DNA of 64,000 bases from Planctomycetota bacterium (GCA_020638735.1 JACKHZ010000013.1:277694-341693); one strand, 5' to 3'; positions 13,674 through 63,846 are shown, counted from the first letter of the stretch. The notes: generated from the sequence alone by a model not told the origin. Program-made: numbers and translations.

Positions 13674-13690
13674 TGCCGCGGTGTGGCATC

Positions 13691-20151: not shown

Positions 20152-21341
20152 GGGGATAGGTCGTCCAAGCTGCAGTCCGGCCCACCCGAACCGCACGACC
20201 GCGTCGATCCACGATCCTTCGCCCCCCGTCGACCCGCCTTCGGACCCCGCCCAACCCGGGCACTCTTGCCGAAATCCCCCTTCCAGCCAACACCCCGCCC
20301 CCGCCGCGACCCTTCGCCCGTGGCCTCCGCTCCCTCACCTCACGCGCCCCACCACTCCGGCCCTCCCGGCGGCGCCCGCGCCGGCGCTACTTGCGCCACC
20401 TCACACGGCAACCCTATCGCCCGCAGCACCTTCTCGATCGCATCCGGCGCGGTGATCGCCGCCAGCAGCCGACGCACGCCGCCGCAATGCGGACAGACGA
20501 GCACGTCGATCGCGAACACCCGCCGCAGCAGTTCCGCCCACGGATAGCGGCGACGACGCATCGTCGCGCAACCCGATCGACCGCCGTTCGGTGCATGCGG
20601 GACCGTTCTGCGTCTCAGGCACAACGCGAGCACCGCCTGCACCGCCCGCTGCTCCGGCACCGCATCGACGCCTTCGTCCGCCACCGCCTCTACCTCATCC
20701 ACCCGAGGCACGACCCGCGAACGCAACCCCGCCGCCGGCGCCAACACGCTGTGATACGTCACCAGGTGCCGCCGCGGCGGCGGCACCAATGCCAGCAGCC
20801 GCTCGATCAGCACCTCCGGCTCCATCACGACGTGTGTCGAACCGTCCTTCCACCGCCGCTTCAGCGAGTACGCCACCCGCCCATCCGGCAGCAGTGACAA
20901 CCGCGACTCCGCGATCGCCGCACGACCCGCGTAGCGCAGCAGGTGCTCCAATCGCTTGCGATCCCCCGCCGCGACACGCACCCCGGCGTGCAGCGAGAAG
21001 CCGTCGTGATCCGCGCACAGCGGGCCCTTCACGAACGGTTCCGCACGCGTGCCGCGACCGACCCGCACGTCGATCTGCCCGGCGCGTTCACCCAGCGCGG
21101 CGCGACCCGTCACCGCACCCGATGCCAGCGTCAGCATCGTCTGCTGCTCGCCATCGACGACCTCGCTCGCATCCGCCGCATCGCCTTCGTCCCACCACTT
21201 GCCCGCCTTCTTCAGCTCCCTCGTCACACGCGCGCCGATGCGCCGCACCTGTGCTGCCACGTCCGCGTCGGTCAGCCCTTCGTGCTCGTGCCACGCGACC
21301 TCCCCGCGGCCGGGCTGCCAGGAGTACACACCGTCGAGCCA
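20152..21341 (-). mobile_element. IS91-family element, fragment C: oriIS-like end plus ~330 C-terminal codons of the transposase (5'-truncated)
   Basis: Almost identical to fragment B from the tail through ...[23 protein letters not shown]. Homology to B stops after ccgtcgagcca (21341). On the ori side it abuts a 17-codon remnant of a minus-strand gene (..SERDWQFYLQFAARHFE*, stop at 20096). Confidence 0.85.
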
Positions 21342-21861
21342 GCTCGGCAGCGGCCTGACCGAGCTGAGCGCGTCGGCGAGCTCGATCTCGGGGCGCGTGG
21401 TCCGCAACGCCGAGATCGCCACCGAGACCCGTGCGCGCAGCACGTCGGCGGCGGAGCTGTTGCAGCGGCTCGGTCAGACGACGCGCAACATCGGCGAGAT
21501 CACCGGCATGATCCGCGACGTCGCCGACCGCACCAACCTGCTGGCGCTCAACGCCTCGGTCGAGGCCGCGCGCGCCGGTGAAGCTGGCCGCGGCTTCGCC
21601 GTCGTCGCCGGTGAGGTCAAGGAGCTGGCCAAGCAGAGCCGCAGCGCGACCGGCGAGATCTCGGCGCAGCTGGCAGAGATCTCCAACCAGGTCGCCGCGT
21701 CGGTCGAGGCGGTCGACAAGATCTGCAAGGACATCGACGCCGTCGCCGACAACACCAGCGAGGTCGCCGCCGCCGTCGAACAGCAAGCCAGCGTCGTGCA
21801 GGAGCTGAGCATGACGGCCGAGACGCTCGCGTCGCGCTCGGGCGTGATCCCGGCGAATTGA
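21342..21861 (+). pseudogene. 3' fragment of a methyl-accepting chemotaxis protein gene (signalling domain only), 5'-truncated by IS91 fragment C
   Basis: From the IS junction the + frame reads ...[61 protein letters not shown]...[16 protein letters not shown]. This is the highly conserved MCP hairpin-tip signature. No sensor, TM or HAMP part is present. Confidence 0.85.
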
Positions 21862-27000: not shown

Positions 27001-28444
27001 GCATAGGTCGTCCAAGCTGGAGTCCGGCCCACCCGAACCGCACGACCGCGTCGATCCACGATCCTTCGCCCCCCGTCGACCCGCCTTCGGACCCCGCCCA
27101 ACCCCGGCACTCTTGCCGAAATCCCCCTTCCAGCCAACACCCCGCCCCCGCCGCGACCCTCTGGCCACGGCATCAGCTCCCTCACCTCACGCGCCCCACC
27201 ACTCCGCCACTCCCGGCGGCGCTCGCGCCGGCGCTACTTGCGCCACCCCACACGGCAACCCCATCGCCCGCCGCACCTTCTCGATCGCATCCGGCGCGGT
27301 GATCGCCGCCAGCAGCCGACGCACGCCGCCGCAATGCGGACAGACGAGCACGTCGATCGCGAACACCCGCCGCAGCAGTTCCGCCCACGGATAGCGGCGA
27401 CGACGCATCGTCGCGCAACCCGGCCGACCGCCGTTCGGTGCATGCGGGACCGTTCTGCGTCTCCTGCGCAACGCGAGCACCGCCTGCACCGCCCTCTGCT
27501 CCGGCTCGACCTCGACGCCATCGTCCGCCACCACCTCGTCTTCCTCCACCCGCGGTATCACCCGCGAACGCAACCCCGCCGCCGGCGCCAACACGCCGTG
27601 ATACGTCACCAGGTGACGCCGCGGCGGCGGCACCAATGCCAGCAGCCGCTCGATCAGCACCTCCGGCTCCATCACGACGTGTGTCGAACCGTCCTTCCAC
27701 TGCCGCTTCAGCGAGTACGCCACCCGCCCATCTCGTGCTCGTGCCACGCGACCTCCCCGCGGCCGGGCTGCCAGGAGTACACACCGTCGAGCCACACCAC
27801 ATGGAAGTGCACGTTCAGCCGCAGCCCCGAGTCGAACCGCTGCACGAACAACACCGCTCCCGTGCGCGGCCGTGGCAACCCCAGCCGACGCGCGCGCGAC
27901 TCGTAGAACCCCGACACCGCGCCCACCAACACCCGCCGCACCAGCGCACACGCCTCCGCGTCATACGCACACAGCACCCGCAGCCGATGCGGCAGCGACA
28001 ACACCCATTGCCGCACCGGCGCCTCGACCGGAAACACCCGGTCCACCAACCACGCCGCCGTGTCCACCATGCGCCGCGCCCCGCACGACGGGCAGAAGCC
28101 GCGGCCCTTGCACGAGAACGCCACCGCCTCGTCCTTCCGGCACACCTCGCACCACACCCGCGCGAAGCCGTGCGCCAACACCCCGCAGCGCAAGAACGCA
28201 TCCACCTCCCGATGGCAGAACCGCGGCAACGGCCGTTCGCGCTGCTCGAGGCGTAGACGCACCGTCGGCCACGCAGAGGCGACCGCCCGGTAGAGCACCG
28301 ACCGCTCCGGTCGGCGCCGACACCACGTTGCTGCAGCTGCGCGCACATACGGTCAGGTGCACCGCATGCGCCAGCGGTGGCATGGATTCGCCGCGGCACG
28401 CCATCACGCAGTCACACGCACGCGAGCATGGCCTTGCCCTCCAC
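27001..28444 (-). mobile_element. IS91-family element, copy D: oriIS-like end to transposase N-terminus, but with an out-of-frame internal deletion of roughly 0.4 kb (transposase pseudogene); right (terIS-side) boundary uncertain
   Basis: The N-terminal part (27708..28346 ORF) has the Zn-binding domain FLRCGVLAHGFARVWCEVCRKDEAVAFSCKGRGFCPSCGARRM and the Y2 core [17 protein letters not shown]. The C-terminal part (27187..27951 ORF) resumes at DGRVAYSLKRQWKDGSTHVV in another frame. At the junction, ...gccacccgcccatc|tcgtgctcgtgcc skips sequence present in copy B (about 15013-15408). The terminus variant is ..CCTATGC. It is more diverged from A, B and C (e.g. RVIPRVEEDEVVADDGVEVEPEQ). Confidence 0.8.
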
Positions 28445-37349: not shown

Positions 37350-39677
37350 ATGCGCCTACCTTCCCCTGCAGTCTCCCTGATCTCCGCCGCGGCGCTGTCG
37401 GTCGCGGTCGCCAACCTCGCGCCGCTCTCGACCTCCACCGACACGGCGATGCCGGGTACGCAGCCGCTCGAGGCCGCCTTGCTCGGCCCGTTGCCGGCCT
37501 GCGACGGATGCCACGGCTACTACGACCAGGACGTCGAGCCGGTCGAGAACTGGATGGGCAGCATGATGTCGCACGCCGGCCGCGACCCGGTGTTCTGGGC
37601 GGCGCTCGGCGTCGCCGAAGGCGACCTGCCCGGGGCCGGCGACTTCTGTCTGCGCTGCCACGCGCCGCGCGGCTGGCAGGAAGGGCGCGCCTTCCCGACC
37701 GATGGCTCGGCGCTCGATCCGATGCTGGACCAGTACGGCGTCGAGTGCGGCCTGTGCCATCAGCTCGTCAACCCGGACAAGAGCGAACACGGCGGCGTGC
37801 AGTACCTGCCCTACGTCGCCAACGACGGCGGCAACCCGGTCGAGGGCTACTACGGCAGCGGCATGGCCGTGCTGGCCGGCAACCAGACACGCTACGGTCC
37901 GTACGCCTCGACCACCGCGGGTCACCCGTTCGTGCAGTCGAAGTTCCACCGCTCCGCGGAGATCTGCGGCACCTGTCACGACGTCTCCAACCCGGTCACC
38001 GGCGACCTCGCCGCCAACAACGGCGCGATGACGCCGCTGCCGCCCGGTCAGTCGAGCGGCGTGTCCGGCGCGCCGGTGACCCAGAAGGCGGCGTTCCTCA
38101 ACCCGCCGTTCGCCTACGGCATCGTCGAGCGCACGTTCAGCGAGCACTTCGCCAGCGCGCTGTCGACCACGCCGGTCGCCAACTACGCGTCGCTACCGGG
38201 CGACCTTCAGCGCGGCGCGATCAAGCGCGCCTACGACCAGGCGCAGCTCGCCGGCATGTCGGGCGATCACGAGGACGGCACCGCGCGCTTCTTCTCGTGC
38301 CAGAGCTGCCACATGGAGCCCGTGGTCGGCGAAGGCGCGGCGTTCGGCATCTCGCCGGTGCGCTACGACCTGCCGAAGCACGACATGACCGGCGGCAACA
38401 CCTGGGCGCCGCTGGCGATCCAGTGGCTCGACGGCCAGTCGCCGAGCCTGCTGCGCCTCGGCAAGAACATGTCGCCGACGATGACCGCGGCGATGGACCG
38501 CGGCGTGCTTCGCTCGCGCGCGGCGCTGCAGCGCGCGGCGGCGCTCGACGTGCAGAACGTCGACACGCTGCGCGTCACCAACCTGACCGGCCACAAGCTG
38601 CTGACCGGCTATCCCGAAGGCCGTCGCATGTGGCTGCGCATCCGCTGGATGAACGAGCAGCTGCAGGTGATCCAGGAGCAGGGCTCGTACGGCAGCTTCC
38701 AGACGACCGTCAACGGCCAGAACTACACCGTCGAGTCGATCACCGACCCGAACGCCCACGTCTACGAGGCCAAGCTCGGCATCACCCAGGACTGGGCGCT
38801 GCAGCTGCTCGGCATGGGCGTGTCGCCGTTCACGCCGCTCGGCTTCGACCGCGTGACGGGTGCGCCGACGACGGACCTCGCGACGCTGGCGACCAGCGCG
38901 CCGGGCACCGCCGAGCCGACCTTCCACTTCGTGCTCAACAACACGCTGCTCGAGGACAACCGCATCCCGCCCTACGGCTTCGACCGCGACGAGGCCGAAC
39001 ACCGCAACGCGCTGCCCGTGCCGGCGACGGCGTTCGGCAACCCGGCGCCGGGCGGGACCTACGAGCACTTCGACGACGTGCAGCTGACGCCGCCGCCCGG
39101 CGCCACGCGCGCCGAGATCGAGCTGATGTACCAGACCGCGAGCTGGGAGTACATCCAGTTCCTGCTGCTCGCCAACCCGGGCACCAGCGCCTTCCTCGCC
39201 TCGGCCGGGCAGGAGCTGTTCGACGCCTACATGGCCACCGGCAAGTCGACGCCGGAGGTGATGGCGACCGCGCGCTGGTGCGAGATGCCGGGCTCCAACG
39301 AAGACGCCGTCCTGCGCACGTCGATCGACAGCGCGACACCGGACGCGACCTGCGCCAAGCGGGTCGAGGGAGGCGACGTGATGCACTTCGAGATCACCAG
39401 CCCCAACGGCACCCACACCAACAGCCTCGGCCTGCTGGTGCTCGAGCTGCACCAACCGAGCGCGCCGCCGATCCCGGGCCTGATCCCGGGCCTGTGGCTC
39501 GACGAAGCCCACGGCCTGGTCACGATCAACGGCGTGCCGCCGGGTGGCTGGAGCTGGAGCATCCAGCTGCCCTCGAGCGTGGTCGGCAGCCTGCGCTGGC
39601 AGGCGCTGCTGTGCAACGCGACCCCGGCGAACGGCATCTTCGCCGCGACCGACGCGTTCGACTTCTACCAGGACTGA
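37350..39677 (+). CDS. secreted multiheme c-type cytochrome-like protein (5 CxxCH motifs) with shared C-terminal domain
   Basis: The ATG at 37350 gives MRLPSPAVSLISAAALSVAVA, a signal peptide. The CxxCH motifs are CDGCH, CLRCH, CGLCH, CGTCH and CQSCH. The C-terminus is ...WSIQLPSSVVGSLRWQALLCNATPANGIFAATDAFDFYQD. Confidence 0.8.
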   Translation: MRLPSPAVSLISAAALSVAVANLAPLSTSTDTAMPGTQPLEAALLGPLPACDGCHGYYDQDVEPVENWMGSMMSHAGRDPVFWAALGVAEGDLPGAGDFCLRCHAPRGWQEGRAFPTDGSALDPMLDQYGVECGLCHQLVNPDKSEHGGVQYLPYVANDGGNPVEGYYGSGMAVLAGNQTRYGPYASTTAGHPFVQSKFHRSAEICGTCHDVSNPVTGDLAANNGAMTPLPPGQSSGVSGAPVTQKAAFLNPPFAYGIVERTFSEHFASALSTTPVANYASLPGDLQRGAIKRAYDQAQLAGMSGDHEDGTARFFSCQSCHMEPVVGEGAAFGISPVRYDLPKHDMTGGNTWAPLAIQWLDGQSPSLLRLGKNMSPTMTAAMDRGVLRSRAALQRAAALDVQNVDTLRVTNLTGHKLLTGYPEGRRMWLRIRWMNEQLQVIQEQGSYGSFQTTVNGQNYTVESITDPNAHVYEAKLGITQDWALQLLGMGVSPFTPLGFDRVTGAPTTDLATLATSAPGTAEPTFHFVLNNTLLEDNRIPPYGFDRDEAEHRNALPVPATAFGNPAPGGTYEHFDDVQLTPPPGATRAEIELMYQTASWEYIQFLLLANPGTSAFLASAGQELFDAYMATGKSTPEVMATARWCEMPGSNEDAVLRTSIDSATPDATCAKRVEGGDVMHFEITSPNGTHTNSLGLLVLELHQPSAPPIPGLIPGLWLDEAHGLVTINGVPPGGWSWSIQLPSSVVGSLRWQALLCNATPANGIFAATDAFDFYQD

Positions 39678-39777
39678 CGCCCGCAGGACCGGGCGACCGC
39701 CGGCGATTGCGGTCGCCCCCGAGGCTGCGCATGCTGGGCCGACCCGGCCCGCCGGGCGCCCCGCCTCCTGCTCCGCC

Positions 39778-42402
39778 ATGCATCGATCGCTCCTGCTGAC
39801 GCCGTTCCTCGCCGCGAGTCTGCACGCCCAGGACGACGTCGCCACGCCGACGCGACCGATCGAGCCCGCCGCGGAGAAGCTCGCGCGCGTGGCGCCGCGT
39901 TCGCCCGAAGAGACCGTCGCGTCGATCGAACTGCCGCCCGGCTACCACCTCGAGGTCGTCGCCTGCGAGCCGATGATCCGCGAGCCGGTGGCGATCGCGT
40001 GGGACGGCAACGGCCGCATGTACGTCGCCGAGATGTGCACCTACATGCAGGACATCGACGGCCGCGACGAGCACGCCGCGAAGAGCCGGATCAGCCGCCT
40101 CGAGGATCGCGACGGCGACGGCCGGATGGACCACCACACGGTGTTCGTCGACGGCCTCGTGCTGCCGCGCATGATCCTGCCGCTGCAGGACAGCGTCATC
40201 GTGCGCGAGACCGACACGCTCGATCTGCACGAGTATCGCGACACCGACGGCGACGGCGTCGCCGACGACAAGCGGCTGGTGTTCGCCGGCGGCGGGCGCG
40301 GCGGCAACCTCGAGCATCAGCCGAGCGGGCTCGAGTGGAACGTCGACAACTTCCTCTACGTGACCTACACCGACCGGCGCTACCGCTACCGCGACGGCAG
40401 GATCGAGGCGCACCCGCTGCCCGCCGGCGAAGGGCAGTGGGGCATCACCTTCGACGACTGGGGCCAGTGCTTCTACTCGCGCGCCGGCGGCGAGGTGGTC
40501 GCGACGATGTTCCAGCAGAACCTGCAGTACGGGCGCCTGTCGCTGCCCGGCGAGCTCGAAGACGGCTTCCACGAGTGCTGGCCGATCGACGACATCCCCG
40601 ACGTGCAGGGCGGCCTGCCCCGCGTGCGCGAAGACGGCTCCCTCAACCACTTCACCGGCTGCTGCGGTCAGACGGTGTTCCGCGGTGATCGCCTGCCCGA
40701 GGAGCTGCGCGGCAACCTGTTCGTGCCCGAGCCCGTCGGTCGGCTGATCCGCCGCGCGACGATCACCGACGAAGGCGGCAAACGCGTGCTGCGCAACCCG
40801 CACGGCAAGTCGGAGTTCTTGCGCACCGCCGACGCGAACTTCCGCCCGGTCAACATGGAGACGGGCCCCGACGGCACGCTCTACATCGTCGACATGTATC
40901 GCGGCATCATCCAGGAGGGCAACTGGGTGCGCGAAGGCAGCTACCTGCGCGGCGTCGTGCAGCAGTACGGCCTCGACCGCAACATCGGCCGCGGCCGCAT
41001 CTATCGCCTCGTGCACGACGACTTCGCGCCGGGGCCGCAGCCGCACATGCTCGACGAGACCAGCGCCGAGCTGGTCGCACACTTGAGCCACGCGAACGGC
41101 TGGTGGCGCGACAGCGCGCAGAAGCTGCTGGTGCTGCGCGGCGACGTGTCGGTGGTGCCGGCGCTGGGCGAACTGCTGCAGCACGGCGAGACCGCGGTGG
41201 CGCGCATGCACGCGCTGTGGACGCTCGACGGCCTCGACGCGGTCACGATGCGGCACGTGCAGACCGCGCTGAAGGACGACGACGCGCGCATGCGCGCGAC
41301 CGCGGTGCGCGTCGCCGAGCGCTTCCTCGACGCCTCGTCGCGCGACGCCGATGCCGTGGCCGCGGTGCACAGCGCCGCCGTCGACCCGTCGCCGCTCGCG
41401 CGCCTGCAGGCGCTGCGCACCGCGCTCTACGTCGAGCTGCCCGGCTACGAGCAGCTGGTCGAACGGATCGTCGCCGCCGGCGGCGACCACGAGGTGTTCC
41501 GGCTGACGGCCAAGGAGCACTTCGACCGCCTCGCCAAGGAGAAGGCCGAGGCCGAACGGCGCGCCGAGATCGCGCGCAAGAACGCCGCGCTCGCCGCCGC
41601 CGTGCAGCGCGGCGCGACGGTCTACCAGGGGCTGTGCTTCGCGTGCCACGGCACCGACGGCGAGGGCATGCCCGTGCCCGGCAGCGAAGGCATGCGGCTC
41701 GCGCCGAGCCTCGCCCGCTCGCCGCGCGTGCTCGGATCGCCGGCGCGGCTCGGTCGCATCCTGCTGCACGGCCTGACCGGCCCCGTCGACGGCGCGAACT
41801 TCCCCGGCGTGATGGTCGGAATGGCCGCCAACGACGACCAGTGGATCGCCGACGTGATGACCTACGTACGCAACAGCTGGGGCAACGCCGCCAGCCTGAT
41901 CGAGCCGGCCGAGATCGCCGAACTGCGCAAGGCGACCGCCGCCCGCAACACGCAGTGGACGCTCGCCGAGCTGAAGCCGTTCGACCCTGTGCTGCTCGCG
42001 CGCCGCAGCTGGCGGCTGACCTCGGACCGCAACCCGGGTGAACTGGCGCGCGCGGTCGACGGCGACGACGGCACGCGCTGGACGACCAACGAGACGCAGC
42101 GGCCGGGCACCTGGCTGAGCATCGAGCTGCCCGAAGCCGTGCCGCTGACCGGCTGCTGCCTCGACACGCACGGCTCGATCAACGACTTCCCGCAGCGCTA
42201 CGAAGTGCGCACGTCGATGGACGGCGAGAACTGGAGCGAGCCGATCGCCGCCGGCGACGGCGAACGAGACCAACCGATCATCCGCTGGCAGCCGACGACC
42301 GCGCGCTTCGTCAAGATCACGCAGCTCGGCAAGAAGGCAGACCTCTGGTGGTCGGTGCACGAGCTGCAGCTGTTCGGCGACGGCAACCCGCTGCCGAAGT
42401 AG
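39778..42402 (+). CDS. PVC-type heme-binding (CxxCH) membrane-bound-dehydrogenase-domain protein with HEAT repeats and C-terminal F5/8 type C (discoidin) domain
   Basis: The ATG at 39778 gives MHRSLLLTPFLAASLHAQ. The dehydrogenase-like domain is PPGYHLEVVACEPMIREPVAIAWDGNGRMYVAEM...DGDGRMD...FRPVNMETGPDGTLYIVDMYRGIIQ. The cytochrome c motif is VYQGLCFACHGTDGEG. The discoidin-like end is AVDGDDGTRWTT...WLSIEL...RYEVRTSMDGENW. Confidence 0.85.
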   Translation: MHRSLLLTPFLAASLHAQDDVATPTRPIEPAAEKLARVAPRSPEETVASIELPPGYHLEVVACEPMIREPVAIAWDGNGRMYVAEMCTYMQDIDGRDEHAAKSRISRLEDRDGDGRMDHHTVFVDGLVLPRMILPLQDSVIVRETDTLDLHEYRDTDGDGVADDKRLVFAGGGRGGNLEHQPSGLEWNVDNFLYVTYTDRRYRYRDGRIEAHPLPAGEGQWGITFDDWGQCFYSRAGGEVVATMFQQNLQYGRLSLPGELEDGFHECWPIDDIPDVQGGLPRVREDGSLNHFTGCCGQTVFRGDRLPEELRGNLFVPEPVGRLIRRATITDEGGKRVLRNPHGKSEFLRTADANFRPVNMETGPDGTLYIVDMYRGIIQEGNWVREGSYLRGVVQQYGLDRNIGRGRIYRLVHDDFAPGPQPHMLDETSAELVAHLSHANGWWRDSAQKLLVLRGDVSVVPALGELLQHGETAVARMHALWTLDGLDAVTMRHVQTALKDDDARMRATAVRVAERFLDASSRDADAVAAVHSAAVDPSPLARLQALRTALYVELPGYEQLVERIVAAGGDHEVFRLTAKEHFDRLAKEKAEAERRAEIARKNAALAAAVQRGATVYQGLCFACHGTDGEGMPVPGSEGMRLAPSLARSPRVLGSPARLGRILLHGLTGPVDGANFPGVMVGMAANDDQWIADVMTYVRNSWGNAASLIEPAEIAELRKATAARNTQWTLAELKPFDPVLLARRSWRLTSDRNPGELARAVDGDDGTRWTTNETQRPGTWLSIELPEAVPLTGCCLDTHGSINDFPQRYEVRTSMDGENWSEPIAAGDGERDQPIIRWQPTTARFVKITQLGKKADLWWSVHELQLFGDGNPLPK

Positions 42403-54375: not shown

Positions 54376-57354
54376 TCAGCGCGCCGGAGGGAAGGTCACG
54401 CGCCCGCCGTGCTCGTCGACGCGGACGCTCTGCCTGCGCGTGTTCCAGTAGCCGGCGATCTCGGCCCGGAGTTCGCCCGGCGGCACCGCGACCTCGAACT
54501 CCAGCTGTGGGCCGACGTGACCGTGGAACCACGTGTCGAGGTCGCGCCAGGCGAGCAGCGTACCGTCGGCGTCGCGAACCAGCAGCGTGTCGCTCCAGCA
54601 CATCTGCGCGCGCTGCTCGACGTCCAGCTCGACGACGACCCGCAGCGGTGACGCCGGCTCGAGCGCGAACGCCACCTCGGTCGCCGCACCGACGCCGACG
54701 TGCACCGGCGTCGGCGCGACACGCAAGCTGCGGCTGCTGCCGCGCAGTTCGTAGTCCCCGGCCGGCACCTCGGCGTGCGAGAACGAACCGTCGCGCCTGC
54801 GCCGCAGCACGAAGCTCTCACCGCGCCCGACCGCGAACAGCGCCAGCTGCAGGTCCTTGGGCGCTACCAGCTCACCCGCAGCCACCGCGTGCACGCGGTG
54901 CGGCGGCCCCATCGTGATCGTGCCGAGATCGACGTCGCCGCCGGCCGGCACCTCGAGGTCGTTCCACCGCACCGAGGGACGGCCCGTCACCGAGACGGTG
55001 GCCGTCAGGTGCCCCGGGGCGAACGGCCCGATCTCGAAGCGGCCGTTCTCGTCGCAGCGGGCCGTCGGCCCGGTCCATCGCAGTCGGCGCTGCACGACCA
55101 TGATCTGTGCGCGCAGCGGCTGACCGTTCTCGTCGACGACAAGACCGCGGACCCAGTGCCGCGACCGCGCGCGGTCCGGCACGACGACGTCGACGACGTT
55201 GCCGTCCGGCACGACAGCGGGCACGCGCCAGATCGCTAAGAACGGATGCAGCTCGTAGGCAGCGGCGTCGAACAACGCGACCTCGATCGGTCGATCGCCG
55301 GGCACGCGCCACGTCATCGCCTGTAGCGTCAGGCCGTCTTCGTCGGTCGGCACCGCCTGGCCGACAGGCATGCCGTTCGGGTCCGAGACCTGCACCCGCC
55401 ATCCCGCCAGCGGCGCACCGCGCTCGTCGCGCAGCCGCACGCGCAGCGGCAGCAGCGCCGGCGCCGCGGCGTCCCAGGTCGACGGCCGGCCGCTGCGCAG
55501 CTCGATCACTTCGCGCACGTCCGCGTCGCCGATGTCGGCCGTGACCACCCACATGCCCGGCAGCAAGCCGTCGAACGAGAACACGCCGCGTCCCCACGAG
55601 CGCAGCGACCGTTCGCAGAACGGGAACGCGTGCGCGCCGTCCGCCAGCATGCGCAGCGAGACCTGTGATCCGCCCGCCGGCGCGCCGTCGGCGCGGGTCG
55701 TCGTGCCCTGCAGCGACGCGCCTTCGTCGACACGCACCTCGATCGGCGCGCTGCTCGGCAGGTCCAGTCGCACCATGCCGATGCGCTGTCGGTCTCCGTC
55801 GACGACCCGGGCGACCACCGCGACGTGCCCCGGTGACAGCCAATCCAGCACGAACGAACCGTCCGCCGCGGTGCGGTCGTACCACGGCTCCGGGATGTCG
55901 CTGCCGAACGAGATCGTGCCGAGCTCGGCGGCGACGGGCTCGCCGCGTTCGTCGACCACCCTGCCGCGCAGCTGCGGACCAGCTGCGCCGAGGCGCAGGC
56001 GACACTTCAGCACGCCGTCGACGACGCTCGTGTTCGTCCACGCCGACACGGCGTGACCGGAAGCCCGCGCCCGCAGCTGCGGTGCGCGCTGACCACGGCG
56101 ACGCAACACGCCGTCGACCCCGGTGACGCCCAGCGGCGTCATGTGCCGATATGCCCCCTGGGTGGCGTTGCCCTCCACCTCGGCGCCGACGACCGGTGCG
56201 CCGAGCGCGTCGACCACGGTCACCTGCAGTGGTGTCTCGGCCGGGACCTGCACCTCGAGCTCGTGATGGAACGTCGCCGGAACGGGGTTGGGGTACCAGA
56301 TGCCTTGTGCTTCGGTGCCGCTGACGAACACCTCGTAGGTCGTCGCGTGCGCACAGTCCTCGAACGTCACGTCCCCGCTGGCGTCGGTGTCGAGGCAGCG
56401 GACGTCGTCGCCGTGGACCAGCATGACCACCTCACCGGCCTCCACCACCGGCTCGTCGGCGTGGCGAACGTGCACGGTGATCGCGCGGCGCGGCCGCGCC
56501 TCGACCGGCGGCGCGATCACCGGCGGCGGCGGCAGTTCGACCGCGTCCCGCTGACCGACCGTCGTCACCGGCTCGGCCTCGGCGCTCGCCGGAGCGACCG
56601 CAACCGCGCCCGCCGCGGCGGGCGGCGCCAGACGTTCGGGCCGCCACAGCATCGCGACGGCGGCGATCGCGACGACCGCCGTCGCAGCCGCCGCGACGCG
56701 CATCAACCGATGCGGCACCACAGGCTTCGCCGGCACCCGCGTCAGCAACGTGTCGCGCATCGCGTCGAGCCGCGTCGCCGACAGCGCCATCGCGCCTGCC
56801 GTCGTCGCCAGCCCGGCCGGCAACAGCGCGCGCAGCCGGTCGAGCCCGCGCACGATCTGCGTTCGCACGGTGCCCGCCGGCCGCCCGAGCGTCGCGCCGA
56901 TCTCGGCCGCGGTCAGGCCGTGCTGCACGTGCAGCCCGACCGCCTCGCGGAACGGCGACGGCAGCTCGGCGAGCGCGTTCTTCAGCAGCTCGGCGAACTC
57001 GCCGTCGACGCTGCCGCGCACCGGGTCGTCGCCGGCCAGCAACGTCTCCAGCTGCGCCGCCCCGGTCATCTGTCGCCGCGCCGTGCGCTGCATGGTGCGC
57101 GCGTGGTTGGCGAGCACGCCGAGCAGCCACGGCAGCAGCGGCCGCGCCGGATCCCACCGGTCGGCGTGCGTCATCGCCGTCAGCCAGGTGGTCTGCAGCA
57201 GGTCCTCGGCGCGGTGCTGGTCGCCGCCGGCGAGGTAGCAGGCGACGCGACCGAGCTCCGGCGCGGTGCGGTCGAAGACCCCAGCCAGCGCGCGCGCATC
57301 GCCGCGCTGACGGAAGTCGAGGAACAGGGATTCGACGGTGGCAGGAGTCTTCAC
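54376..57354 (-). CDS. membrane-tethered ECF sigma factor fused to a TM helix and a CarboxypepD_reg-like ectodomain array (paralogue 2)
   Basis: 992 aa with a GTG start. Sigma-2 region: LGRVACYLAGGDQHRAEDLLQTTWLTAMTHADRWDPARPLLPWLLGVLAN. Sigma-4 region: VGLHVQHGLTAAEIGATLGRPAGTVRTQIVRGLDRLRALL. TM helix: VAAAATAVVAIAAVAML. Repeats include LRGRVVDERGEPVAAEL, VRLRDERGAPLAGWRVQV..TDEDG and VRGLVVDENGQPLRAQIMVV...CDENGRFEIGPFAPG. Confidence 0.85.
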   Translation of the reverse strand: MKTPATVESLFLDFRQRGDARALAGVFDRTAPELGRVACYLAGGDQHRAEDLLQTTWLTAMTHADRWDPARPLLPWLLGVLANHARTMQRTARRQMTGAAQLETLLAGDDPVRGSVDGEFAELLKNALAELPSPFREAVGLHVQHGLTAAEIGATLGRPAGTVRTQIVRGLDRLRALLPAGLATTAGAMALSATRLDAMRDTLLTRVPAKPVVPHRLMRVAAAATAVVAIAAVAMLWRPERLAPPAAAGAVAVAPASAEAEPVTTVGQRDAVELPPPPVIAPPVEARPRRAITVHVRHADEPVVEAGEVVMLVHGDDVRCLDTDASGDVTFEDCAHATTYEVFVSGTEAQGIWYPNPVPATFHHELEVQVPAETPLQVTVVDALGAPVVGAEVEGNATQGAYRHMTPLGVTGVDGVLRRRGQRAPQLRARASGHAVSAWTNTSVVDGVLKCRLRLGAAGPQLRGRVVDERGEPVAAELGTISFGSDIPEPWYDRTAADGSFVLDWLSPGHVAVVARVVDGDRQRIGMVRLDLPSSAPIEVRVDEGASLQGTTTRADGAPAGGSQVSLRMLADGAHAFPFCERSLRSWGRGVFSFDGLLPGMWVVTADIGDADVREVIELRSGRPSTWDAAAPALLPLRVRLRDERGAPLAGWRVQVSDPNGMPVGQAVPTDEDGLTLQAMTWRVPGDRPIEVALFDAAAYELHPFLAIWRVPAVVPDGNVVDVVVPDRARSRHWVRGLVVDENGQPLRAQIMVVQRRLRWTGPTARCDENGRFEIGPFAPGHLTATVSVTGRPSVRWNDLEVPAGGDVDLGTITMGPPHRVHAVAAGELVAPKDLQLALFAVGRGESFVLRRRRDGSFSHAEVPAGDYELRGSSRSLRVAPTPVHVGVGAATEVAFALEPASPLRVVVELDVEQRAQMCWSDTLLVRDADGTLLAWRDLDTWFHGHVGPQLEFEVAVPPGELRAEIAGYWNTRRQSVRVDEHGGRVTFPPAR

Positions 57355-57435
57355 GGCGTTCTGCCCCTGCTTGCCGGAGCCCGCGCCAGTGCGCCCGGCA
57401 ACTGCGGAATTCTCGCCGCGACGCGGCGCGCGAGT

Positions 57436-57861
57436 CTACCGCGGCGCGCGGAGCACCAGGTTGTCGCCGCGCACGACGAACACCGCCTCGTCGCGCGGCA
57501 GCAACCGCCCGGGGGCGATGAGCGTCCGGCCGACGTCGTAACTCGCCACGACCTTGCCGCCGGCGACGAACACCAACAGCTGGTACTCGTCGAAGTTCTG
57601 CTGCTGCGATCGCGCTGCCCCGCCCCAGGCGATGCCGATCGCCCGGTCGACGTCTTCCGGCGACTGGTAGGGCGTCGCGACGTACATCGCGTCCCAGTCG
57701 AAGCCGGCCAATTGGTCCATGCGCACCTCGGCGCCTTCGTGCTTCTTCACCGCCGCGCGCAGCACGTCGTCGAGGCGCAGCCGGCCCTGCCACCACACGG
57801 CCGCGCCGCCGAGCAGCACGACGCCGACGAAGGCCAGGGTGCCGAGCCTAGAACGCGCCAA
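57436..57861 (-). CDS. hypothetical small membrane-anchored protein
   Basis: 141 aa with an N-terminal TM helix (LGTLAFVGVVLLGGAAVWW). The soluble domain has normal composition (DQLAGFDWDAMYVATPYQSPEDVDRAIGIAWGG...YQLLVFVAGGKVVASYDVG). Its start overlaps the 3' end of the upstream propeller gene by 14 nt. Confidence 0.6.
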   Translation of the reverse strand: MARSRLGTLAFVGVVLLGGAAVWWQGRLRLDDVLRAAVKKHEGAEVRMDQLAGFDWDAMYVATPYQSPEDVDRAIGIAWGGAARSQQQNFDEYQLLVFVAGGKVVASYDVGRTLIAPGRLLPRDEAVFVVRGDNLVLRAPR

Positions 57862-59299
57862 CGGTCAGGCTCAGCGCGTTGGTCGCGGTGATCGGGCCGA
57901 AGTCGAGCGTCGGCGTGACCTCGAACGACACCCACTGCTCGCGCAGCTCGACACCTGCCAGCGCCGGGTCGTCCGGCAGCGTCAGCGTCGACGACGCCGA
58001 GCCGCCGCTCGGCAGCAGCACGCCGATCACATCGGGCGCCGCCTGCAGCACGCAGCCGGGCACACCGGTCGCGAACACCGCGTCGAGGCCGACCGACACC
58101 GGCGAGAAGCCGTGCACGACGACGACGATCGACGACGACGGCAGACCGCTGCCAGTCGTCTCGACGACGCCGCCGGTCCACGGCAGCGACGCCGTGATCG
58201 CGCCCTGGCACGCGCCGCCGAGGTCGGCGACGAGCGCTTCGCAGGTCGTCGTCAGTCCCATCACCGACGGCAGCTGCACGCCGCCCGCGCCGAAGAACTG
58301 ACCGCCGGCGGCGACGTCGCCGTCGGGCATGACCAACAGGTCGTTGCACGCGCCGGACGTCGCCGGCCCGATCGGCGTCCACGTCGTGCCGTCGAAGCGC
58401 TTCAGCGAACCCGAGATGCCGCCGGTGACGAGATCGCCGTCGGGCAGCGCCACGACGACGGTCTGGTAGTCGAAGTTGCCAGGCACGATCGCCCACGTCG
58501 CGCCGTCCCAGACGAACGTGTCGGCGTTGGCGGCGACCAGCGAGCCGTCGGCGCGCGCGGCGAGGTCGCGCACGGTGCTCGACAGCCCGCTGCCGAACGC
58601 GACCCACGCGCTGCCGTTCCACCGCGCGACCTTGCCGGCCATGACGCCGCCGATCTGCGAGAAGCTGCCGCCGGCGACGAGCTCGCCGCCGGGCAGCTGC
58701 GCGAACGCGCGCACGTCGCCGTTGGCGCCGGCGCCGAACGCCGACCAGGCGCCTCCGTCCCAGCGGGCGATGTTGGCCGCGGCGGTGCCACCGGCCATGT
58801 TGAAGAACCCGCCGACGACGAGGTCCCCGTTCGGCAGCTCGTTCAGCGCGTAGACGTAGGCCACCAGCGAGCTGAACGTCACGCCGCCGCCCACCGCCGA
58901 CCACGACGCGCCGTCGAAGCGCGCCAGCCGGTTGACGGTCACGCCGTCGATCGTCGTGAACTCACCGCCGACCACGAGGGCGCCGTCGGACGTGGCGAGC
59001 ATGCACAGCGGGCGGCCGTTGGTCGTGCCGAGCGTCGTCCACGACGAGGACTGTTCGTCCCATTGCACGACCGCGCCGCTGGTCCCCGCGCCGCGCCCGG
59101 CGACGAGCTGCGCCGTCAGCGGTCCAGCGCCGTCGGCGTCCCAGGCGGCCATCGACCAGACCTGCGTCGAGGCGGTGTCGAACGGACCATCGGTCCGCCA
59201 CTGCGTCGTGCACTGCGCCACGACGGAGGTCGCGAACGCCGAGGTGGCGGCCGCGCACGCCAACGTTCGCAGCAGATTGCCGGGCGGGATCAGGAGCAT
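57848..59299 (-). CDS. secreted beta-propeller repeat protein (paralogue of 6744..9158) with shared C-terminal domain
   Basis: 483 aa with signal peptide MLLIPPGNLLRTLACAAATSAFATSVVAQ. Blades include ARFDGASWSAVGGG, IARWDGGAWSAFGAG, VARWNGSAWVAFGSGL and KRFDGTTWTPIGP. The C-terminus is ...STLTLPDDPALAGVELREQWVSFE....GPITATNALSLTVGAF. Confidence 0.85.
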   Translation of the reverse strand: MLLIPPGNLLRTLACAAATSAFATSVVAQCTTQWRTDGPFDTASTQVWSMAAWDADGAGPLTAQLVAGRGAGTSGAVVQWDEQSSSWTTLGTTNGRPLCMLATSDGALVVGGEFTTIDGVTVNRLARFDGASWSAVGGGVTFSSLVAYVYALNELPNGDLVVGGFFNMAGGTAAANIARWDGGAWSAFGAGANGDVRAFAQLPGGELVAGGSFSQIGGVMAGKVARWNGSAWVAFGSGLSSTVRDLAARADGSLVAANADTFVWDGATWAIVPGNFDYQTVVVALPDGDLVTGGISGSLKRFDGTTWTPIGPATSGACNDLLVMPDGDVAAGGQFFGAGGVQLPSVMGLTTTCEALVADLGGACQGAITASLPWTGGVVETTGSGLPSSSIVVVVHGFSPVSVGLDAVFATGVPGCVLQAAPDVIGVLLPSGGSASSTLTLPDDPALAGVELREQWVSFEVTPTLDFGPITATNALSLTVGAF

Positions 59300-59420: not shown

Positions 59421-62400
59421 TCACGGCAGACGCAGCGGCGAAAGCGCCATGCCAGCGGGCATCGGCAGGGTGACGTTCACCCGCACCGGCGCTCCGCCGG
59501 GCAACCTCGCCGAGACGGTGTAGTCACCGGGGGGCAGCACGACCTGCAGTCCAGACTCCCGGTCGGCGGGCTGGCTGCGGCCCCGCACGCTGACGTAGCG
59601 ACGCAAGGCGCCCTCGCCTTCGATCTGCCACATCACCTTGAAGTCGACGCGCGGCACCGTCGGCACGGCGAACATCCGCAGCGTCGCGCCGCGCTCGACG
59701 ACGGCGAACGCGACCTCGTTGACCCGATCCGGCGCCACCTCGACGAGGCGCTGATCGACGTAGCCCGCTTCCTGAACGAGCAGCAGCCGATAGCGGCCCG
59801 CCGGCAGCACCAGCTCACCGACCGGTTCGCGCAGGCGGCAGAGACCGAACATCGGGCCCAGCTCGTCGGCGTAGGCATAGACCTCGGCCGGCGCCCCGGC
59901 GCTGGCGCTCGGGGCGAGGATGCGGACCGTGCAATCGGTGTCCGCGTCCACCACGCCCAGGTCCTGTTCGTCGTCGGCGCGCAGCGTCACGTCGCGACGC
60001 AGCGTGATGCGGCGCAGGCCGGCGATCAGGTGGTATTCACCCGGCGGCGCCACGAACGAGAAGCCGCCGTCGGCGGCGACCGGGGCGTAGACGGCTTCGC
60101 CCGAATCGCGCTCGAAGAGGCCGACCTGCTTCTCCTGCAGCCGCGCGAGCCGTCCCCGCAGCGTCGCCGTCGGCCGTCGCGCGGGCGGCAGCCGCAGCAC
60201 GACGTCGTCGCCGGGTCGCGCGCCGAAGTGGCGCAGCAGCACCATCGCCGCCGGATCACGACCGAGCTGCAGCAGCAACTCGAAGCGTCGGTCCGTCAGC
60301 CCTTCGAGCACGAACGCGCCGCGCTCGTCGAGCTCCGCGAAGAACGGGCGACTGGCCACGGCGCGGGCGCAGACGAGGCCGCCGCAGAAGGGCCGGCCCG
60401 CTTCGTCGAGCACGACGCCACGCACGACCCCTCGCTCGCCGAACGTCGGCGACCATGACAGCTCGGCTCCGTCGGCGACGACCAGTTCGCGTTCGACGTG
60501 CTCGCCGCGCGACGACTGCGCCTGCAGCAACACGTCGCCTTCGGGCACACCGCGAAGCTCGTAGCTGCCGTCCGCGCGGGCGACGCAGGTCGGCCAGAAC
60601 CAGGTCGGCGCGCGCGCGCCGACGTCCGCGCCGAGTTCGATGGCGCGCGCCATCGCCGCCGCCGTCCCACCCTGGCGCGGACCATCGGGCGCGCCGTCCT
60701 CGCGGGTGGCAGCGAGCCCGCCGAACACACCGCCGCAGACCGCGCCGTCGCGCAGCTCGACCTTCACCGTCGTACCGAGGTGTCCCGGCTCCACCGTCAC
60801 CACGGCGGGCGCGAGCCCCGCCGCGCGCACGAACAGCTGCATCGCGCGGTCGAGGGGTGCCTGCCGGCACGTCGCGACGCCGCGTCCGTCGGTGCGGCCG
60901 AGCCACGGCAGGCGCATCGCGCGCGTCTTGTCGTTCTCGTCGGCGAACGCGTTCGCCAGCGCGCCGCCGAGCTGCAGCGACGCGCCGACCACCGGTCGGC
61001 CGCGCCCGTCGAGCACCTCGACTCCGAACTCGCCGGCCGCATCGCCGAGCTGCAGCTCCATCTCCTCGCCGTCGCCGACGCGCGGCACCTGCCGCAAGCC
61101 GCTCGACAACACGCCGTCGAGGCGCGCCTCGAGGTAGCGGCCGCGCGTCGCGCCCGGCACGCGGAACGCGCCGTGATCGTCGGTCGCAGCCACCGGTAGA
61201 CGCAGCTCGAAGCTGTCGGCGAACGTCGAGTAGACGATCGCGCCGCTGACGCCGACGCCGCGCGCATCGACGACGCGCCCGCTGACGTCGACGCCGTCGG
61301 CCATCGGCACCGCGACCGTCACGTCCGGCCGATCGACGACGAACGACACTTCGTCGCCGCGGTTGGCCTGCAGCTGGTAGAGGCCGTAGGGCACGCCGAG
61401 GATCGTGTGCTCGCCGCGCTCGTTGGCGACGACGGGCAGCGCCGCGACGAACGCGTCCGGGTCGGTCGGCACCGTGACGTAGCCGTTCCACGAGAACGGC
61501 GCCGCCGCGAACTCGCCGACCAGATGCACGGTCGCGGTCGGCGCCTCGCTCGCAGGCTGCGGCGCCGCCGGCTCGCGCGCCGCGTCACGCCCCGGCGACG
61601 GCGCCTCGACGACCTCCTTCGCGGCCGTGCCCTTCGCGACCACGCCCTGCGCGGCGACGTCGACGCTGGCCGGCGCGCCGGTACCCGGAGCCGCGTCGGG
61701 CCACCACGCCATCGCGACGACGAGCGCCACTGTCGTCGCGCCCGACGCGACCACCCAACGCAGCCACGGAACACCGCGGGCGCTGGCCATGCCGGTGGCA
61801 GCCGCCCCGAGGGCCGCGGACGCCGATGCGCTGCCCGCCGCGGCGAGGTGCCGCGCGCCCTCCGCGACCACCGCTTCGCGAACGTGCAGGAGGCTGTCCA
61901 TGCCGCGCAGCAGCGCGCCGAACGCGACCGTCATGCTCGCCGGAAGCCGTCGCCGCACGACCTCGAGGCTGCGGTGGATCCAGCTCTTGACGGTGCCGAC
62001 CGGCCGCGACGTCGCGTGCGCGATCTCGGTCGGCGTCATGCCGTGCACGAGGTTCAGCGTCATCACCTCGCGCTGCGGCACCGGCAGGCCGGCGATCGCT
62101 TCGTTGAGCGAGGCGACGAACTCTGCTTCGATCGCCGCGTCGCTCGGCTGTCGCGAGGTCGGCGATGGCTCGTATTCGCTGCCGGTGACCTCGCGTGCGC
62201 GACGGCGCCGGTCGTTGCGCGTGACGTTGACCAGGATGCCGACCAGCCACGGCTCGAGCGGCCGTTCGCCGTCGTAGCGGTCGGCGCGCTGGATGGCGGT
62301 CAGGAACGTCTCCTGCAGCAGGTCCTCGGGCTGTTGCTGCTTGCCGGCGACGTGGCTGGCCACCAGCAGCAGCTGCTGCGCGACCAGATCGAACACCTGC

Positions 62401-62471
62401 GCGAGCGCGGCGGTGTCGCCTTCGTCGCGGAAGCGGAGGAAGGCCAGGCGGGCGTCCGGTCGGATCTGCAT
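59421..62471 (-). CDS. membrane-tethered ECF sigma factor fused to a TM helix and a CarboxypepD_reg-like ectodomain array (paralogue 3)
   Basis: The preferred ATG at 62471 gives MQIRPDARLAFLRFRDEGDTAALAQVFDLVAQQLLLVASHVAGKQQQPEDLLQETFLTAIQRADRYDGERPLEPWLVGILVN. Sigma-4 region: VMTLNLVHGMTPTEIAHATSRPVGTVKSWIHRSLEVVRRRL. TM helix: WVVASGATTVALVVAMAWW. Repeats include VSGRVVDARGVGVSGAIVY...TDDHGAFRVPG, VVRGVVLDEAGRPFCGGLV and others. The 97 upstream codons of the track ORF look non-coding. Confidence 0.85.
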   Translation of the reverse strand: MQIRPDARLAFLRFRDEGDTAALAQVFDLVAQQLLLVASHVAGKQQQPEDLLQETFLTAIQRADRYDGERPLEPWLVGILVNVTRNDRRRRAREVTGSEYEPSPTSRQPSDAAIEAEFVASLNEAIAGLPVPQREVMTLNLVHGMTPTEIAHATSRPVGTVKSWIHRSLEVVRRRLPASMTVAFGALLRGMDSLLHVREAVVAEGARHLAAAGSASASAALGAAATGMASARGVPWLRWVVASGATTVALVVAMAWWPDAAPGTGAPASVDVAAQGVVAKGTAAKEVVEAPSPGRDAAREPAAPQPASEAPTATVHLVGEFAAAPFSWNGYVTVPTDPDAFVAALPVVANERGEHTILGVPYGLYQLQANRGDEVSFVVDRPDVTVAVPMADGVDVSGRVVDARGVGVSGAIVYSTFADSFELRLPVAATDDHGAFRVPGATRGRYLEARLDGVLSSGLRQVPRVGDGEEMELQLGDAAGEFGVEVLDGRGRPVVGASLQLGGALANAFADENDKTRAMRLPWLGRTDGRGVATCRQAPLDRAMQLFVRAAGLAPAVVTVEPGHLGTTVKVELRDGAVCGGVFGGLAATREDGAPDGPRQGGTAAAMARAIELGADVGARAPTWFWPTCVARADGSYELRGVPEGDVLLQAQSSRGEHVERELVVADGAELSWSPTFGERGVVRGVVLDEAGRPFCGGLVCARAVASRPFFAELDERGAFVLEGLTDRRFELLLQLGRDPAAMVLLRHFGARPGDDVVLRLPPARRPTATLRGRLARLQEKQVGLFERDSGEAVYAPVAADGGFSFVAPPGEYHLIAGLRRITLRRDVTLRADDEQDLGVVDADTDCTVRILAPSASAGAPAEVYAYADELGPMFGLCRLREPVGELVLPAGRYRLLLVQEAGYVDQRLVEVAPDRVNEVAFAVVERGATLRMFAVPTVPRVDFKVMWQIEGEGALRRYVSVRGRSQPADRESGLQVVLPPGDYTVSARLPGGAPVRVNVTLPMPAGMALSPLRLP

Positions 62472-62559: not shown

Positions 62560-63846
62560 ATGGTCATCCCGCCCATCCCCCGGCACCTCGCGAAGCTGTC
62601 GGTCTCGCTGCTGCTGCCGGTGTTCGCGTCGGCCCAGGACGATCCGACCGCGGACTCGACGATCCCGTGGCAGCAGGACCTCGCCGCCGCGCGCGCGCAG
62701 GCCGCCGAACGCCACGCGCCGCTGTTCGTCGTCTTCCGCTGCGAGCGTTGAAGGGACTGCAACGCCTTCTACGGCCAGTTGGGCCGTGAATCCGAGCTGG
62801 ACACCGCCGCCGCCGACTACGTGCCGGTGCGCATCACCAACCTCGCTGAGCTCGACGTCGCCAACCTGCGCTTCGACTTCGACCTGACGTTCGCGGCGGT
62901 GCTGATGCACGCCGACGGCACGGTCTACCACCGCTACGGCAGCCGCGGCCCCGACGCCGCCGACGGCTACCTGTCGCTGTCGTCGCTGGCGCAGCTGCTG
63001 CGCGACACGCTGCCCGAGCACCGTGAGTACGACCGCGCGCCGAAGCCGCCCGCGCCGGCCGCGGCGCAGCGCGCGATCGAGCTGCCGTGGCTGCAGCAGC
63101 GCCTCGCCGCCGGCCAGAAGATCGACTGCGTGCACTGCCACACCGTCAACGACGCCGAGTTCCGCGGCCGCGGCGAGCGCTTCGCGCCCGACGACGACGA
63201 CGTCTACCGCTTCCCCGATCCGGCGCGCGTCGGCATCTCGCTCGACCGCGAACACCAGCGCCGCGTCACCGCCGTGCGCGACGGCTCGCCCGCAGCGGAG
63301 GCCGGCATCGTCGCCGGCGACGAACTGCTCGCGCTCGGCGCGCAACGCTCGGTGCGCACGCTCGCCGACGTGCAGTGGGCGCTGCACCACGCGCCCGCCG
63401 CCGGCGGTGCGCTGCCGATCGCGTGGCGGCGCGACGGCGCCGAGCAGCATTCGGTGCTGACCTTGCCCGCGGGCTGGAAGCGCTGCGATCCCGCCGACTT
63501 CGCGTGGCGACCCTACAAGTGGAACCTGTCGCCGGCGCCCGGCTTCGGCGGCCCCGCGCTGACCGCCGCGGAGAAGCGCCGGCTCGGCGTCGCCGACGAC
63601 CGCTTCGCGTTCCGCGTCAACTACCTCGTCGACTGGGGCGACCGCGCCAACCGCGGCAAGGCCGCGCGCGCGGCCGGCCTGCAGAAGGGCGACGTCGTCG
63701 TGTCGTTCGCCGGCAAGGACGACTTCGCGTCCGTCGAGCACTTCCACGCCTGGGTCCGGCTGACGCGCGCCGTCGGCGAGCAGGTCGAGCTCGTCGTGCT
63801 GCGCAACGGCGAACGGCACACGCTGCGCTACGCGTTGCCGCGCTGA
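62560..63846 (+). CDS. secreted thioredoxin-fold + PDZ-domain protein with an in-frame TGA (62749-62751) at the first position of the redox motif: candidate selenoprotein (UxxC), otherwise a nonsense-mutated pseudogene
   Basis: Track ORFs 62560..62751 and 62779..63846 are in the same frame and separated only by this TGA. The first piece has the signal peptide (MVIPPIPRHLAKLSVSLLLPVFASAQ) and the start of the Trx fold (IPWQQDLAAARAQAAERHAPLFVVFRCER). The read-through gives FRCER-U-RDCNAFYGQ, which aligns with FWAEW-C-GPCKMM of thioredoxins. The second piece has no signal peptide and only a TTG start. PDZ-like segments follow (VTAVRDGSPAAEAGIVAGDELLALG; AARAAGLQKGDVVVSFAG). Confidence 0.7.
62770..62788 (+). 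promoter_or_regulatory. candidate bacterial SECIS-like hairpin downstream of the in-frame TGA at 62749
   Basis: UACGGCC-AGUUG-GGCCGUG forms six Watson-Crick pairs plus one G-U pair, with a 5-nt loop that has G at loop position 2. The loop begins 25 nt after the UGA. No U-tract follows. Confidence 0.45.

Follow-up and report, generated by a model that had tools for sequence, protein, structure and literature searches.

In the window (the whole 64,000-nucleotide stretch of Planctomycetota DNA that was analyzed), two open reading frames (ORFs) lie close together on the plus strand. The upstream ORF (62560..62751) has an ATG start and encodes 63 amino acids, and the downstream ORF (62779..63846) opens with TTG and encodes 355 amino acids. 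They have a common frame, and the translation confirmed two proposals of the initial annotation, namely, that only the TGA at 62749-62751 separates them and that the downstream piece would need a TTG start. Around the TGA, the read-through product is ...PLFVVFRCER-U-RDCNAFYGQLGR... and, over a wider stretch, ...HAPLFVVFRCER-U-RDCNAFYGQLGRE.... We consider it very probable that the locus is a single gene and that its product is an exported selenoprotein belonging to NF041199, a Trx7/PDZ family already catalogued. The parts of this gene (62560..63846, plus strand) follow one another in the order signal peptide, Trx7-like domain, CxHCH, PDZ1, and PDZ2, and the features are as follows.

62560..63846, plus strand: complete predicted selenoprotein gene, 428 codons including selenocysteine (Sec), with its own stop TGA at 63844-63846
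62560..62634, plus strand: signal-peptide-like N-terminus, MVIPPIPRHLAKLSVSLLLPVFASA before QDD, read from the translation
62659..63039, plus strand: Thioredoxin_7-like domain, approximately aa 34-160, with the TGA inside (Pfam PF13899 and PDB-sequence profile)
62740..62742, plus strand: TGC, Cys61, three residues before the predicted Sec (-3); the column is TGC or TGA in the family
62749..62751, plus strand: TGA, predicted Sec (U64), placed where the thioredoxin-fold CxxC has its first Cys (homologous loci and structure-profile alignment)
62758..62760, plus strand: TGC, Cys67, predicted second redox residue of UxxC, Cys in 76/78 loci
62770..62788, plus strand: SECIS-like hairpin UACGGCC-AGUUG-GGCCGUG, in which 62771-62776 pairs with 62782-62787, plus U62770-G62788
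63127..63141, plus strand: C-V-H-C-H (C190, H192, C193, and H194), located after the Trx7 domain and before PDZ1, from alignment columns
63229..63447, plus strand: PDZ domain 1 (Pfam PDZ_2 and PDZ_6, aa 224-296)
63649..63834, plus strand: PDZ domain 2 (Pfam PDZ, aa 364-413; TIGR02037, aa 365-424)

Since the gene ends with a TGA of its own, UGA is not reassigned genome-wide. A signal peptide had earlier been placed on the upstream piece, and the translation indeed begins with a signal-peptide-like segment that is followed by QDD. By a crude filter, a similar hydrophobic N-terminus was present ahead of the domain in at least 69/78 loci of the family, and signal-peptide-like N-termini are, to judge from these translations, the rule in the Trx7/PDZ family. 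When U was written as C, Pfam PF13899 (Thioredoxin_7) matched aa 37-94 with 39.7 bits (cut-off, 27), a region that spans the TGA. The CxHCH residues C190, H192, C193, and H194 were invariant in alignments A1 and A4. This motif may be a form of the CXXCH haem-c attachment site or a metal site and may therefore hold haem or metal.

The C-terminal part of the product contains the two PDZ domains. When the downstream 355 aa only were modelled with AlphaFold2, the mean pLDDT was 93.4 and the pTM 0.89, and the best Foldseek matches were tandem PDZ domains, namely, those of DegQ, DegP, and RseP. The C-terminal PDZ pair is thus closest to the PDZ domains of the HtrA family and RseP, and this accounts for the names "serine protease Do" and "MucD" given to members of this family. 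The HtrA proteases (DegP, DegQ, and DegS) and RseP share this PDZ pair with the Trx7/PDZ protein and provide its best structural and sequence matches; unlike the HtrA proteases, however, the Trx7/PDZ protein has no trypsin-like protease domain. No Trypsin Pfam match was obtained in the read-through product, and of TIGR02037 the PDZ part alone matched (aa 365-424; 40 bits compared to a cut-off of 416). An identity as an HtrA/DegP serine protease was rejected, as a protease domain with the His-Asp-Ser triad was not found. For the same reason, the names "serine protease Do" and "MucD" are misannotations.

Conservation of the in-frame TGA

We scanned one genome per GTDB species and obtained 80 loci, 77 of which had the N-terminus present. 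Nearly all of them derive from Planctomycetota metagenome-assembled genomes (MAGs), and the cultured Saltatorellus ferox Poly30 is also represented (L073, with two predicted Sec codons); outside Planctomycetota, the gene occurred in single MAGs of Verrucomicrobiales and Armatimonadota and in one labelled Paracoccaceae. The identity of the best segment of the 77 loci to the gene described here ranged from 34 to 62%. The codon aligned to 62749-62751 was TGA in 77/77 loci, with conserved protein sequence on both sides (tblastn), whereas Cys or a sense codon at the U64 column was found in 0/77. Every one of the 77 species-level representatives thus holds the predicted Sec at the catalytic position. 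The question raised by the initial annotation of whether homologues have Cys or TGA in this column is thereby answered in favor of TGA throughout.

The constancy of the TGA excludes a private nonsense mutation. The initial annotation had named as its alternative a TGC/TGT-to-TGA change, and a pseudogene could have arisen in this way, by nonsense mutation or by a sequencing error in a Cys-type thioredoxin/PDZ gene: one base change makes TGA from TGC or TGT, and no Sec machinery was detected within the 64-kb window. This alternative fails on the comparison, since the same codon is TGA in 77/77 other species-level genomes that are only 34 to 62% identical, with frame and conservation intact and Cys in none of them. 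In addition, GC3 is 0.95 both upstream and downstream of TGA 62749-62751, and the TGA is followed by a covarying hairpin (see below). We regard the probability of a pseudogene as vanishingly small.

The same comparison excludes two separate genes. A protein homologue search of 5.8 billion proteins returned 152 homologues, of which 120 were listed. These 120 were 313 to 395 aa long, and none spanned more than 84% of the read-through query. This codon is where gene callers stop in the homologues as well, and two NCBI entries are named "(seleno)protein". The downstream ORF alone is annotated in nearly all homologues, as would be expected if a 63-aa exported peptide were followed by a separate cytoplasmic PDZ protein starting from TTG 62779. 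Against this arrangement, a start codon is missing there from many homologues, and the starts chosen by the callers vary, as the range of lengths illustrates. The nine codons that lie between TGA and TTG show conservation at the protein level (RDCNAFYGQ), and the downstream piece would open in the middle of the thioredoxin fold. The matches to Thioredoxin_7 and NF041199 are both continuous across the TGA, as the earlier claim of one gene rather than two had implied. Genuinely separate genes in the homologues would have spoken against that claim; instead, coding was continuous across the TGA in the 77 loci. Two genes are therefore extremely improbable, and the annotation of a 63-aa ORF followed by a "PDZ protein" (or "serine protease Do") of 355 aa can be corrected to that of one predicted 428-residue exported selenoprotein. 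The comparison shows that UGA 62749-62751 is kept by selection and, as far as the aligned genomes can tell, is decoded as selenocysteine and not as a stop.

Neighboring columns were also restricted. The Cys61 column (-3) was TGC in 37 loci, including this gene, and TGA in 41, with nothing else observed (n = 78). Two Sec codons (UxxUxxC) are accordingly present in 41/78 loci, while the gene at 62560-63846 represents the one-Sec form. A Cys-only form was found in none of the 77 species-level representatives. The only exceptions to Cys67 among the 78 loci were Ser and Met, each in one two-Sec member (L023 and L071, respectively). In terms of predicted residues, the family motif is [C/U]xxUxxC. 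A rough NJ tree suggested that C and U were switched about five times and that the two-Sec loci form at least two separate clades.

A hairpin downstream of the TGA

The hairpin at 62770-62788 begins 18 nt past the UGA. Its loop, AGUUG, occupies 62777-62781, so that the gap from UGA to loop is 25 nt, and its minimum free energy (MFE) is -11.8 kcal/mol. The position of the hairpin, of the loop at +25, and of the G at loop position 2 were as initially annotated. Published criteria for a bacterial SECIS (bSECIS) are a loop of 3 to 9 nt, a stem of 4 to 16 bp, a G in the first two loop positions, 16 to 37 nt between UGA and loop, and an MFE of -7.5 kcal/mol or lower (PMC13188914). When the values were compared with this source, the hairpin agreed with every one of them (loop of 5 nt with G at position 2 followed by U, stem of 6 to 7 bp, 25 nt, -11.8 kcal/mol). 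The proposed fit to bacterial SECIS criteria therefore stands, and it is now accompanied by covariation of the hairpin.

Folding of the single sequence was not informative. The 52-nt stretch compared with dinucleotide shuffles gave a z value of -0.97, and 36/200 shuffles folded equally well or better, as expected at 71% G+C. Therefore, single-sequence folding was rejected as stand-alone evidence, and the comparative data are decisive. Rfam scans of the whole window at the gathering threshold and of 62650-62900 with permissive settings returned no bacterial SECIS match.

For the comparison, alignment A2 (78 loci, 60 columns, gap-free) was tested against an explicit structure. RNAalifold on the 60-column alignment yielded the top three pairs of the hairpin only; the explicit test covered all six pairs of the helix. 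In the helix formed by columns 35-40/46-51 (corresponding to 62771-62776/62782-62787), 90.6% of cells were paired across the 78 loci, and compensatory (double-sided) changes occurred at 6/6 pairs. For example, pair 38-48 was GC in 54 loci, AU in 12, and CG in 3, and pair 39-47 was GU in 27, CG in 17, AU in 14, and GC in 11. Several of the compensatory changes demand amino acid replacements (GQLGR, GQVVR, EQLAR, AQLAH, and SQVVS). Since coordinated amino acid replacements are needed for these changes, the constraint acts on the RNA.

In the 41 loci with two UGAs, an extra hairpin came immediately behind the main UGA (columns 16-21/27-32 of A2). It was present in 41/41 of these loci, with a mean of 5.59/6 pairs and a mean MFE of -6.4 kcal/mol, and was essentially absent from the 37 one-UGA loci (this gene included), in which the same columns had a mean of 2.49/6 pairs and -1.5 kcal/mol. 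The difference between two-UGA and one-UGA loci had a Mann-Whitney p value of 5e-13, which is not corrected for phylogeny. C-G to G-C swaps in the extra hairpin couple a D-to-E change with a change at a third codon position. With both helices of A2 taken together, 79.6% of cells were paired compared to 29 to 45% when the partners were slid by 1 to 3 columns, and the observed covariation score was reached by 0/500 shuffles. The extra hairpin falls outside the bSECIS criteria, with a spacing of 15 nt and its mean MFE of -6.4 kcal/mol. The distance of the main hairpin is in the accepted range for each of the two UGAs (25 and 34 nt), which are 9 nt apart. The extra hairpin may be a dedicated second SECIS or a helper for two UGAs that lie 9 nt from each other.

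The comparison shows that the hairpin at 62770-62788 is under selection as an RNA structure, and in its predicted fold it conforms to a bacterial SECIS. Like the E. coli fdhF-type SECIS and the bSECISearch consensus, it is a stem-loop within the coding sequence that closely follows the UGA and has a small apical loop with a G at position 2. Its sequence is not similar to that of the fdhF SECIS, and it is a putative SelB site.

Predicted selenocysteine in the thioredoxin-fold active site

To place the predicted Sec in the fold, we used a profile (A5) of the N-terminal domain from 27 loci, which was searched against PDB sequences. It matched 3fk8, a "disulphide isomerase" (E = 2.7e-7), ERp18/TXNDC12 (2k8v and 1sen; E of about 2e-5), and AGR2 (E of about 1e-4). 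The Sec column was aligned with the first Cys in each case (WCTDC in 3fk8, WCGAC in ERp18, and CPHS in AGR2). In the same alignments, Cys67 fell on the second active-site position and Cys61 on a non-Cys residue. The UxxC alignment of the initial annotation, which had put the UGA on the nucleophilic Cys, is borne out by this profile. By this comparison, U64 is shown to occupy the attacking (N-terminal, nucleophilic) position of the thioredoxin-fold CxxC, with Cys67 as its predicted partner, and Cys61 is shown to be a third conserved residue of presumed redox function. With regard to Sec/Cys pairs, Cys was found at U64 in 0/77 loci, and at the -3 column the ratio of Cys to TGA was 37 to 41; for a Sec/Cys pair at the Sec position, the source is the literature, with its 12 reported Cys homologues (PMC2398784).

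The N-terminal domain is homologous to Thioredoxin_7, ERp18 (TXNDC12), AGR2, and 3fk8, and the CxxC or CxxS of these proteins corresponds to Sec64-x-x-Cys67. In contrast to the Trx7/PDZ protein, they use Cys, have no PDZ domain, and lack both the -3 Cys/Sec and the CxHCH motif. The literature labels the motif of the family CxxU; this is because Cys61, three residues upstream of the Sec, is also conserved. The label CxxU is literally true as well, beside UxxC.

A mechanism can be proposed from these features. SelB carrying Sec-tRNA(Sec) would bind the hairpin at 62770-62788 while the ribosome is at the UGA, and Sec would be delivered. The mature protein would be exported from the cytoplasm and would function as an oxidoreductase or isomerase of the selenol/thiol-disulfide type; its two PDZ domains could recruit client peptides as in DegP/DegQ, in this case without a protease domain, and the invariant CxHCH may hold haem or metal. 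Gene context gave no functional clue, since no neighboring gene cluster was shared by more than 7/78 loci. A broader reading, which we put forward only tentatively and consider rather doubtful, is that the family could consist of exported redox enzymes that depend obligately on Sec and have a [C/U]xxUxxC center (a diselenide in the 41 two-Sec loci), a CxHCH haem or metal site, and, in the two-Sec members, a second hairpin.

Family membership and probable decoding of selenocysteine

The gene at 62560-63846 is an ordinary member of NF041199, an NCBIfam equivalog model named "Trx7/PDZ domain-containing (seleno)protein", and in this respect it is already known. With the U of the query replaced by C, the model matched with 375.4 bits (curated cut-off, 300; E = 2.9e-112), and the match paired aa 36-424 with positions 2-388 of the 390-position profile. 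The score, the architecture of Thioredoxin_7 and two PDZ domains, and the TGA at the Sec column (C61-E-R-U64) were all found as the model describes. Compared with the family, the gene has the same architecture, the same Sec column, and a SECIS hairpin downstream, and nothing essential differs.

The first prediction of the family came from ocean metagenomes, in which it was described as a "putative secreted serine protease MucD" selenoprotein with the motif CxxU (Zhang & Gladyshev 2008, PMC2398784), and 12 Cys homologues were reported (PMC2398784). Reviews of 2022 and 2026 list it as "PDZ domain-containing protein (Thioredoxin_7), CxxU" (PMC9312934, PMC13188914), and the published motif is CxxU with one Sec (PMC9312934, PMC13188914). 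In our search of the literature on the Trx7/PDZ family, no experimental study of any member was found. As the family has been catalogued since 2008 (NF041199, PMC2398784, PMC9312934, PMC13188914), it is not new, and the discovery value of this gene is low. The reviews describe CxxU with one Sec, whereas our survey gave [C/U]xxUxxC with two Sec in 41/78 loci. The additions that can be tested are the Sec at the catalytic site in all 77 species-level representatives, the second Sec together with the extra hairpin in about half of the loci, and the invariant CxHCH.

An alternative to Sec insertion is that the UGA is read through by other means, either by a near-cognate tRNA (Trp, Cys, or Arg) or by SelB-free read-through or pausing at the hairpin. 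The Sec machinery was not located in the 64-kb window, which would be compatible with this possibility: NCBIfam scans of 38 ORFs detected none of selA, selB, and selD in the window, and ARAGORN detected no tRNA, and hence no tRNA-Sec, in it; in 60 related loci, only tRNA-Pro and tRNA-Met were found. However, the UGA lies at the catalytic Cys of a CxxC, where Sec is a known replacement, and the hairpin matches the bSECIS consensus, including the G at loop position 2. The -3 column contains only Cys or TGA, as expected of a Sec/Cys exchange, and the family has been classed as a selenoprotein by NCBI curators and in three papers (PMC2398784, PMC9312934, PMC13188914). We therefore consider read-through without Sec very unlikely. 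If the gene at 62560-63846 encodes a selenoprotein, as we prefer to read it, the organism must decode selenocysteine.

A further in-frame TGA of the window bears on this point. The initial annotation had pointed to a second TGA at 14105, and this codon proved to be real and in frame, with coding potential that goes on through it. In full-length homologues, the column of TGA 14105 is occupied by Cys (KGGSG-C-TC-L), and in related MAGs it is TGA, with approximately 310 further conserved codons behind it. TGA 14105 marks a second, apparently uncatalogued Sec/Cys family, whose gene is cut by an insertion sequence in the window. A second gene with an in-frame TGA and Cys homologues argues that the genome decodes Sec. 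Two MAGs that have the 14105-type TGA gene also carry the Trx7/PDZ gene (L010 with L081 and L037 with L084).

Selenocysteine number and a conserved motif in the Trx7/PDZ family

The gap-free, 60-column nucleotide alignment of 78 Trx7/PDZ loci (A2) showed that the selenocysteine (Sec) content of this family varies. An additional in-frame TGA was found three codons 5′ of the main UGA in 41 of the 78 loci (columns 4 to 6; related loci L021 to L035 and L073 are examples), giving a UxxUxxC motif. Across the same alignment, an extra hairpin (AAGGAC-UGCNN-GUCCUU; columns 16 to 32) immediately 3′ of the main UGA was observed in the two-TGA loci only, and two of these, L023 and L071, have lost the downstream Cys. 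A 2026 review lists one Sec per protein for the family (PMC13188914). The read-through protein also carries a CxHCH motif, which is unchanged in every aligned homologue and is not mentioned in any annotation:

63127-63141, +: CxHCH motif (C190-V-H-C-H194 of the read-through protein), conserved columns

In this exported protein, the motif resembles a haem-c attachment site of the CXXCH type, or else a metal site.

A second selenoprotein candidate and an adjacent insertion element

The second in-frame TGA of the window lies in a gene for which read-through and homologues point to another selenoprotein:

13682-14281, +: second selenoprotein candidate, TGA at 14105-14107

Read-through at this TGA yields ...AWDVRGGAG-U-TCLAPFAYGLREHEIF..., and a hairpin (CGCGUA-CGGGC-UACGCG) starts 17 nt 3′ of the UGA. 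Full-length homologues of ~290 to 330 aa, such as that of Singulisphaera sp. Ch08, have a Cys at the TGA column (GGSG-C-TC). Close Planctomycetota relatives (L081 and L083) display an in-frame TGA followed by a long conserved continuation. Since the product had no match in Pfam or NCBIfam, the gene may represent an uncatalogued Sec/Cys family. Homology to the relatives ends at 14281, exactly where a repeated ISCR/IS91-like element starts:

14281-15470, 20152-21341, 27003-27732 and 6071-6621, strand not given: repeat copies, 94 to 99% identical
14469-16106, 20340-21473 and 27708-28352, -: transposase ORFs of the element

Because these two boundaries coincide, the gene looks to have been cut short by insertion; its C-terminal ~250 codons were not found elsewhere within the window.

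Other TGA codons, long sigma factor ORFs and phylogenetic origin

The sole further TGA codons in the window with strong coding potential on either side are at 21859 (+) and 54378 (-). The latter marks the point where two ORFs of one frame meet, 54376-57435 and 57436-57864 continuing from it, and probably acts as a normal stop. Three very long ORFs match an ECF sigma-70 domain at the N-terminus, followed by ~800 more residues:

59424-62471, -: ECF sigma-70 ORF, ~1,000 aa
54379-57435, -: ECF sigma-70 ORF, ~1,000 aa
23914-26991, +: ECF sigma-70 ORF, ~1,000 aa

One of them is transcribed divergently from the Trx7/PDZ selenoprotein gene, a pairing that is not kept in other genomes. Planctomycetaceae and Rhodopirellula/Verrucomicrobium-type sigma factor matches were also obtained in the window, and the ORF at 39484-42399 (+) matched TIGR02604 ("PVC-type heme-binding CxxCH protein"; 181 bits). 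Taken together, these matches fit an origin of the window within the PVC superphylum (Planctomycetota).
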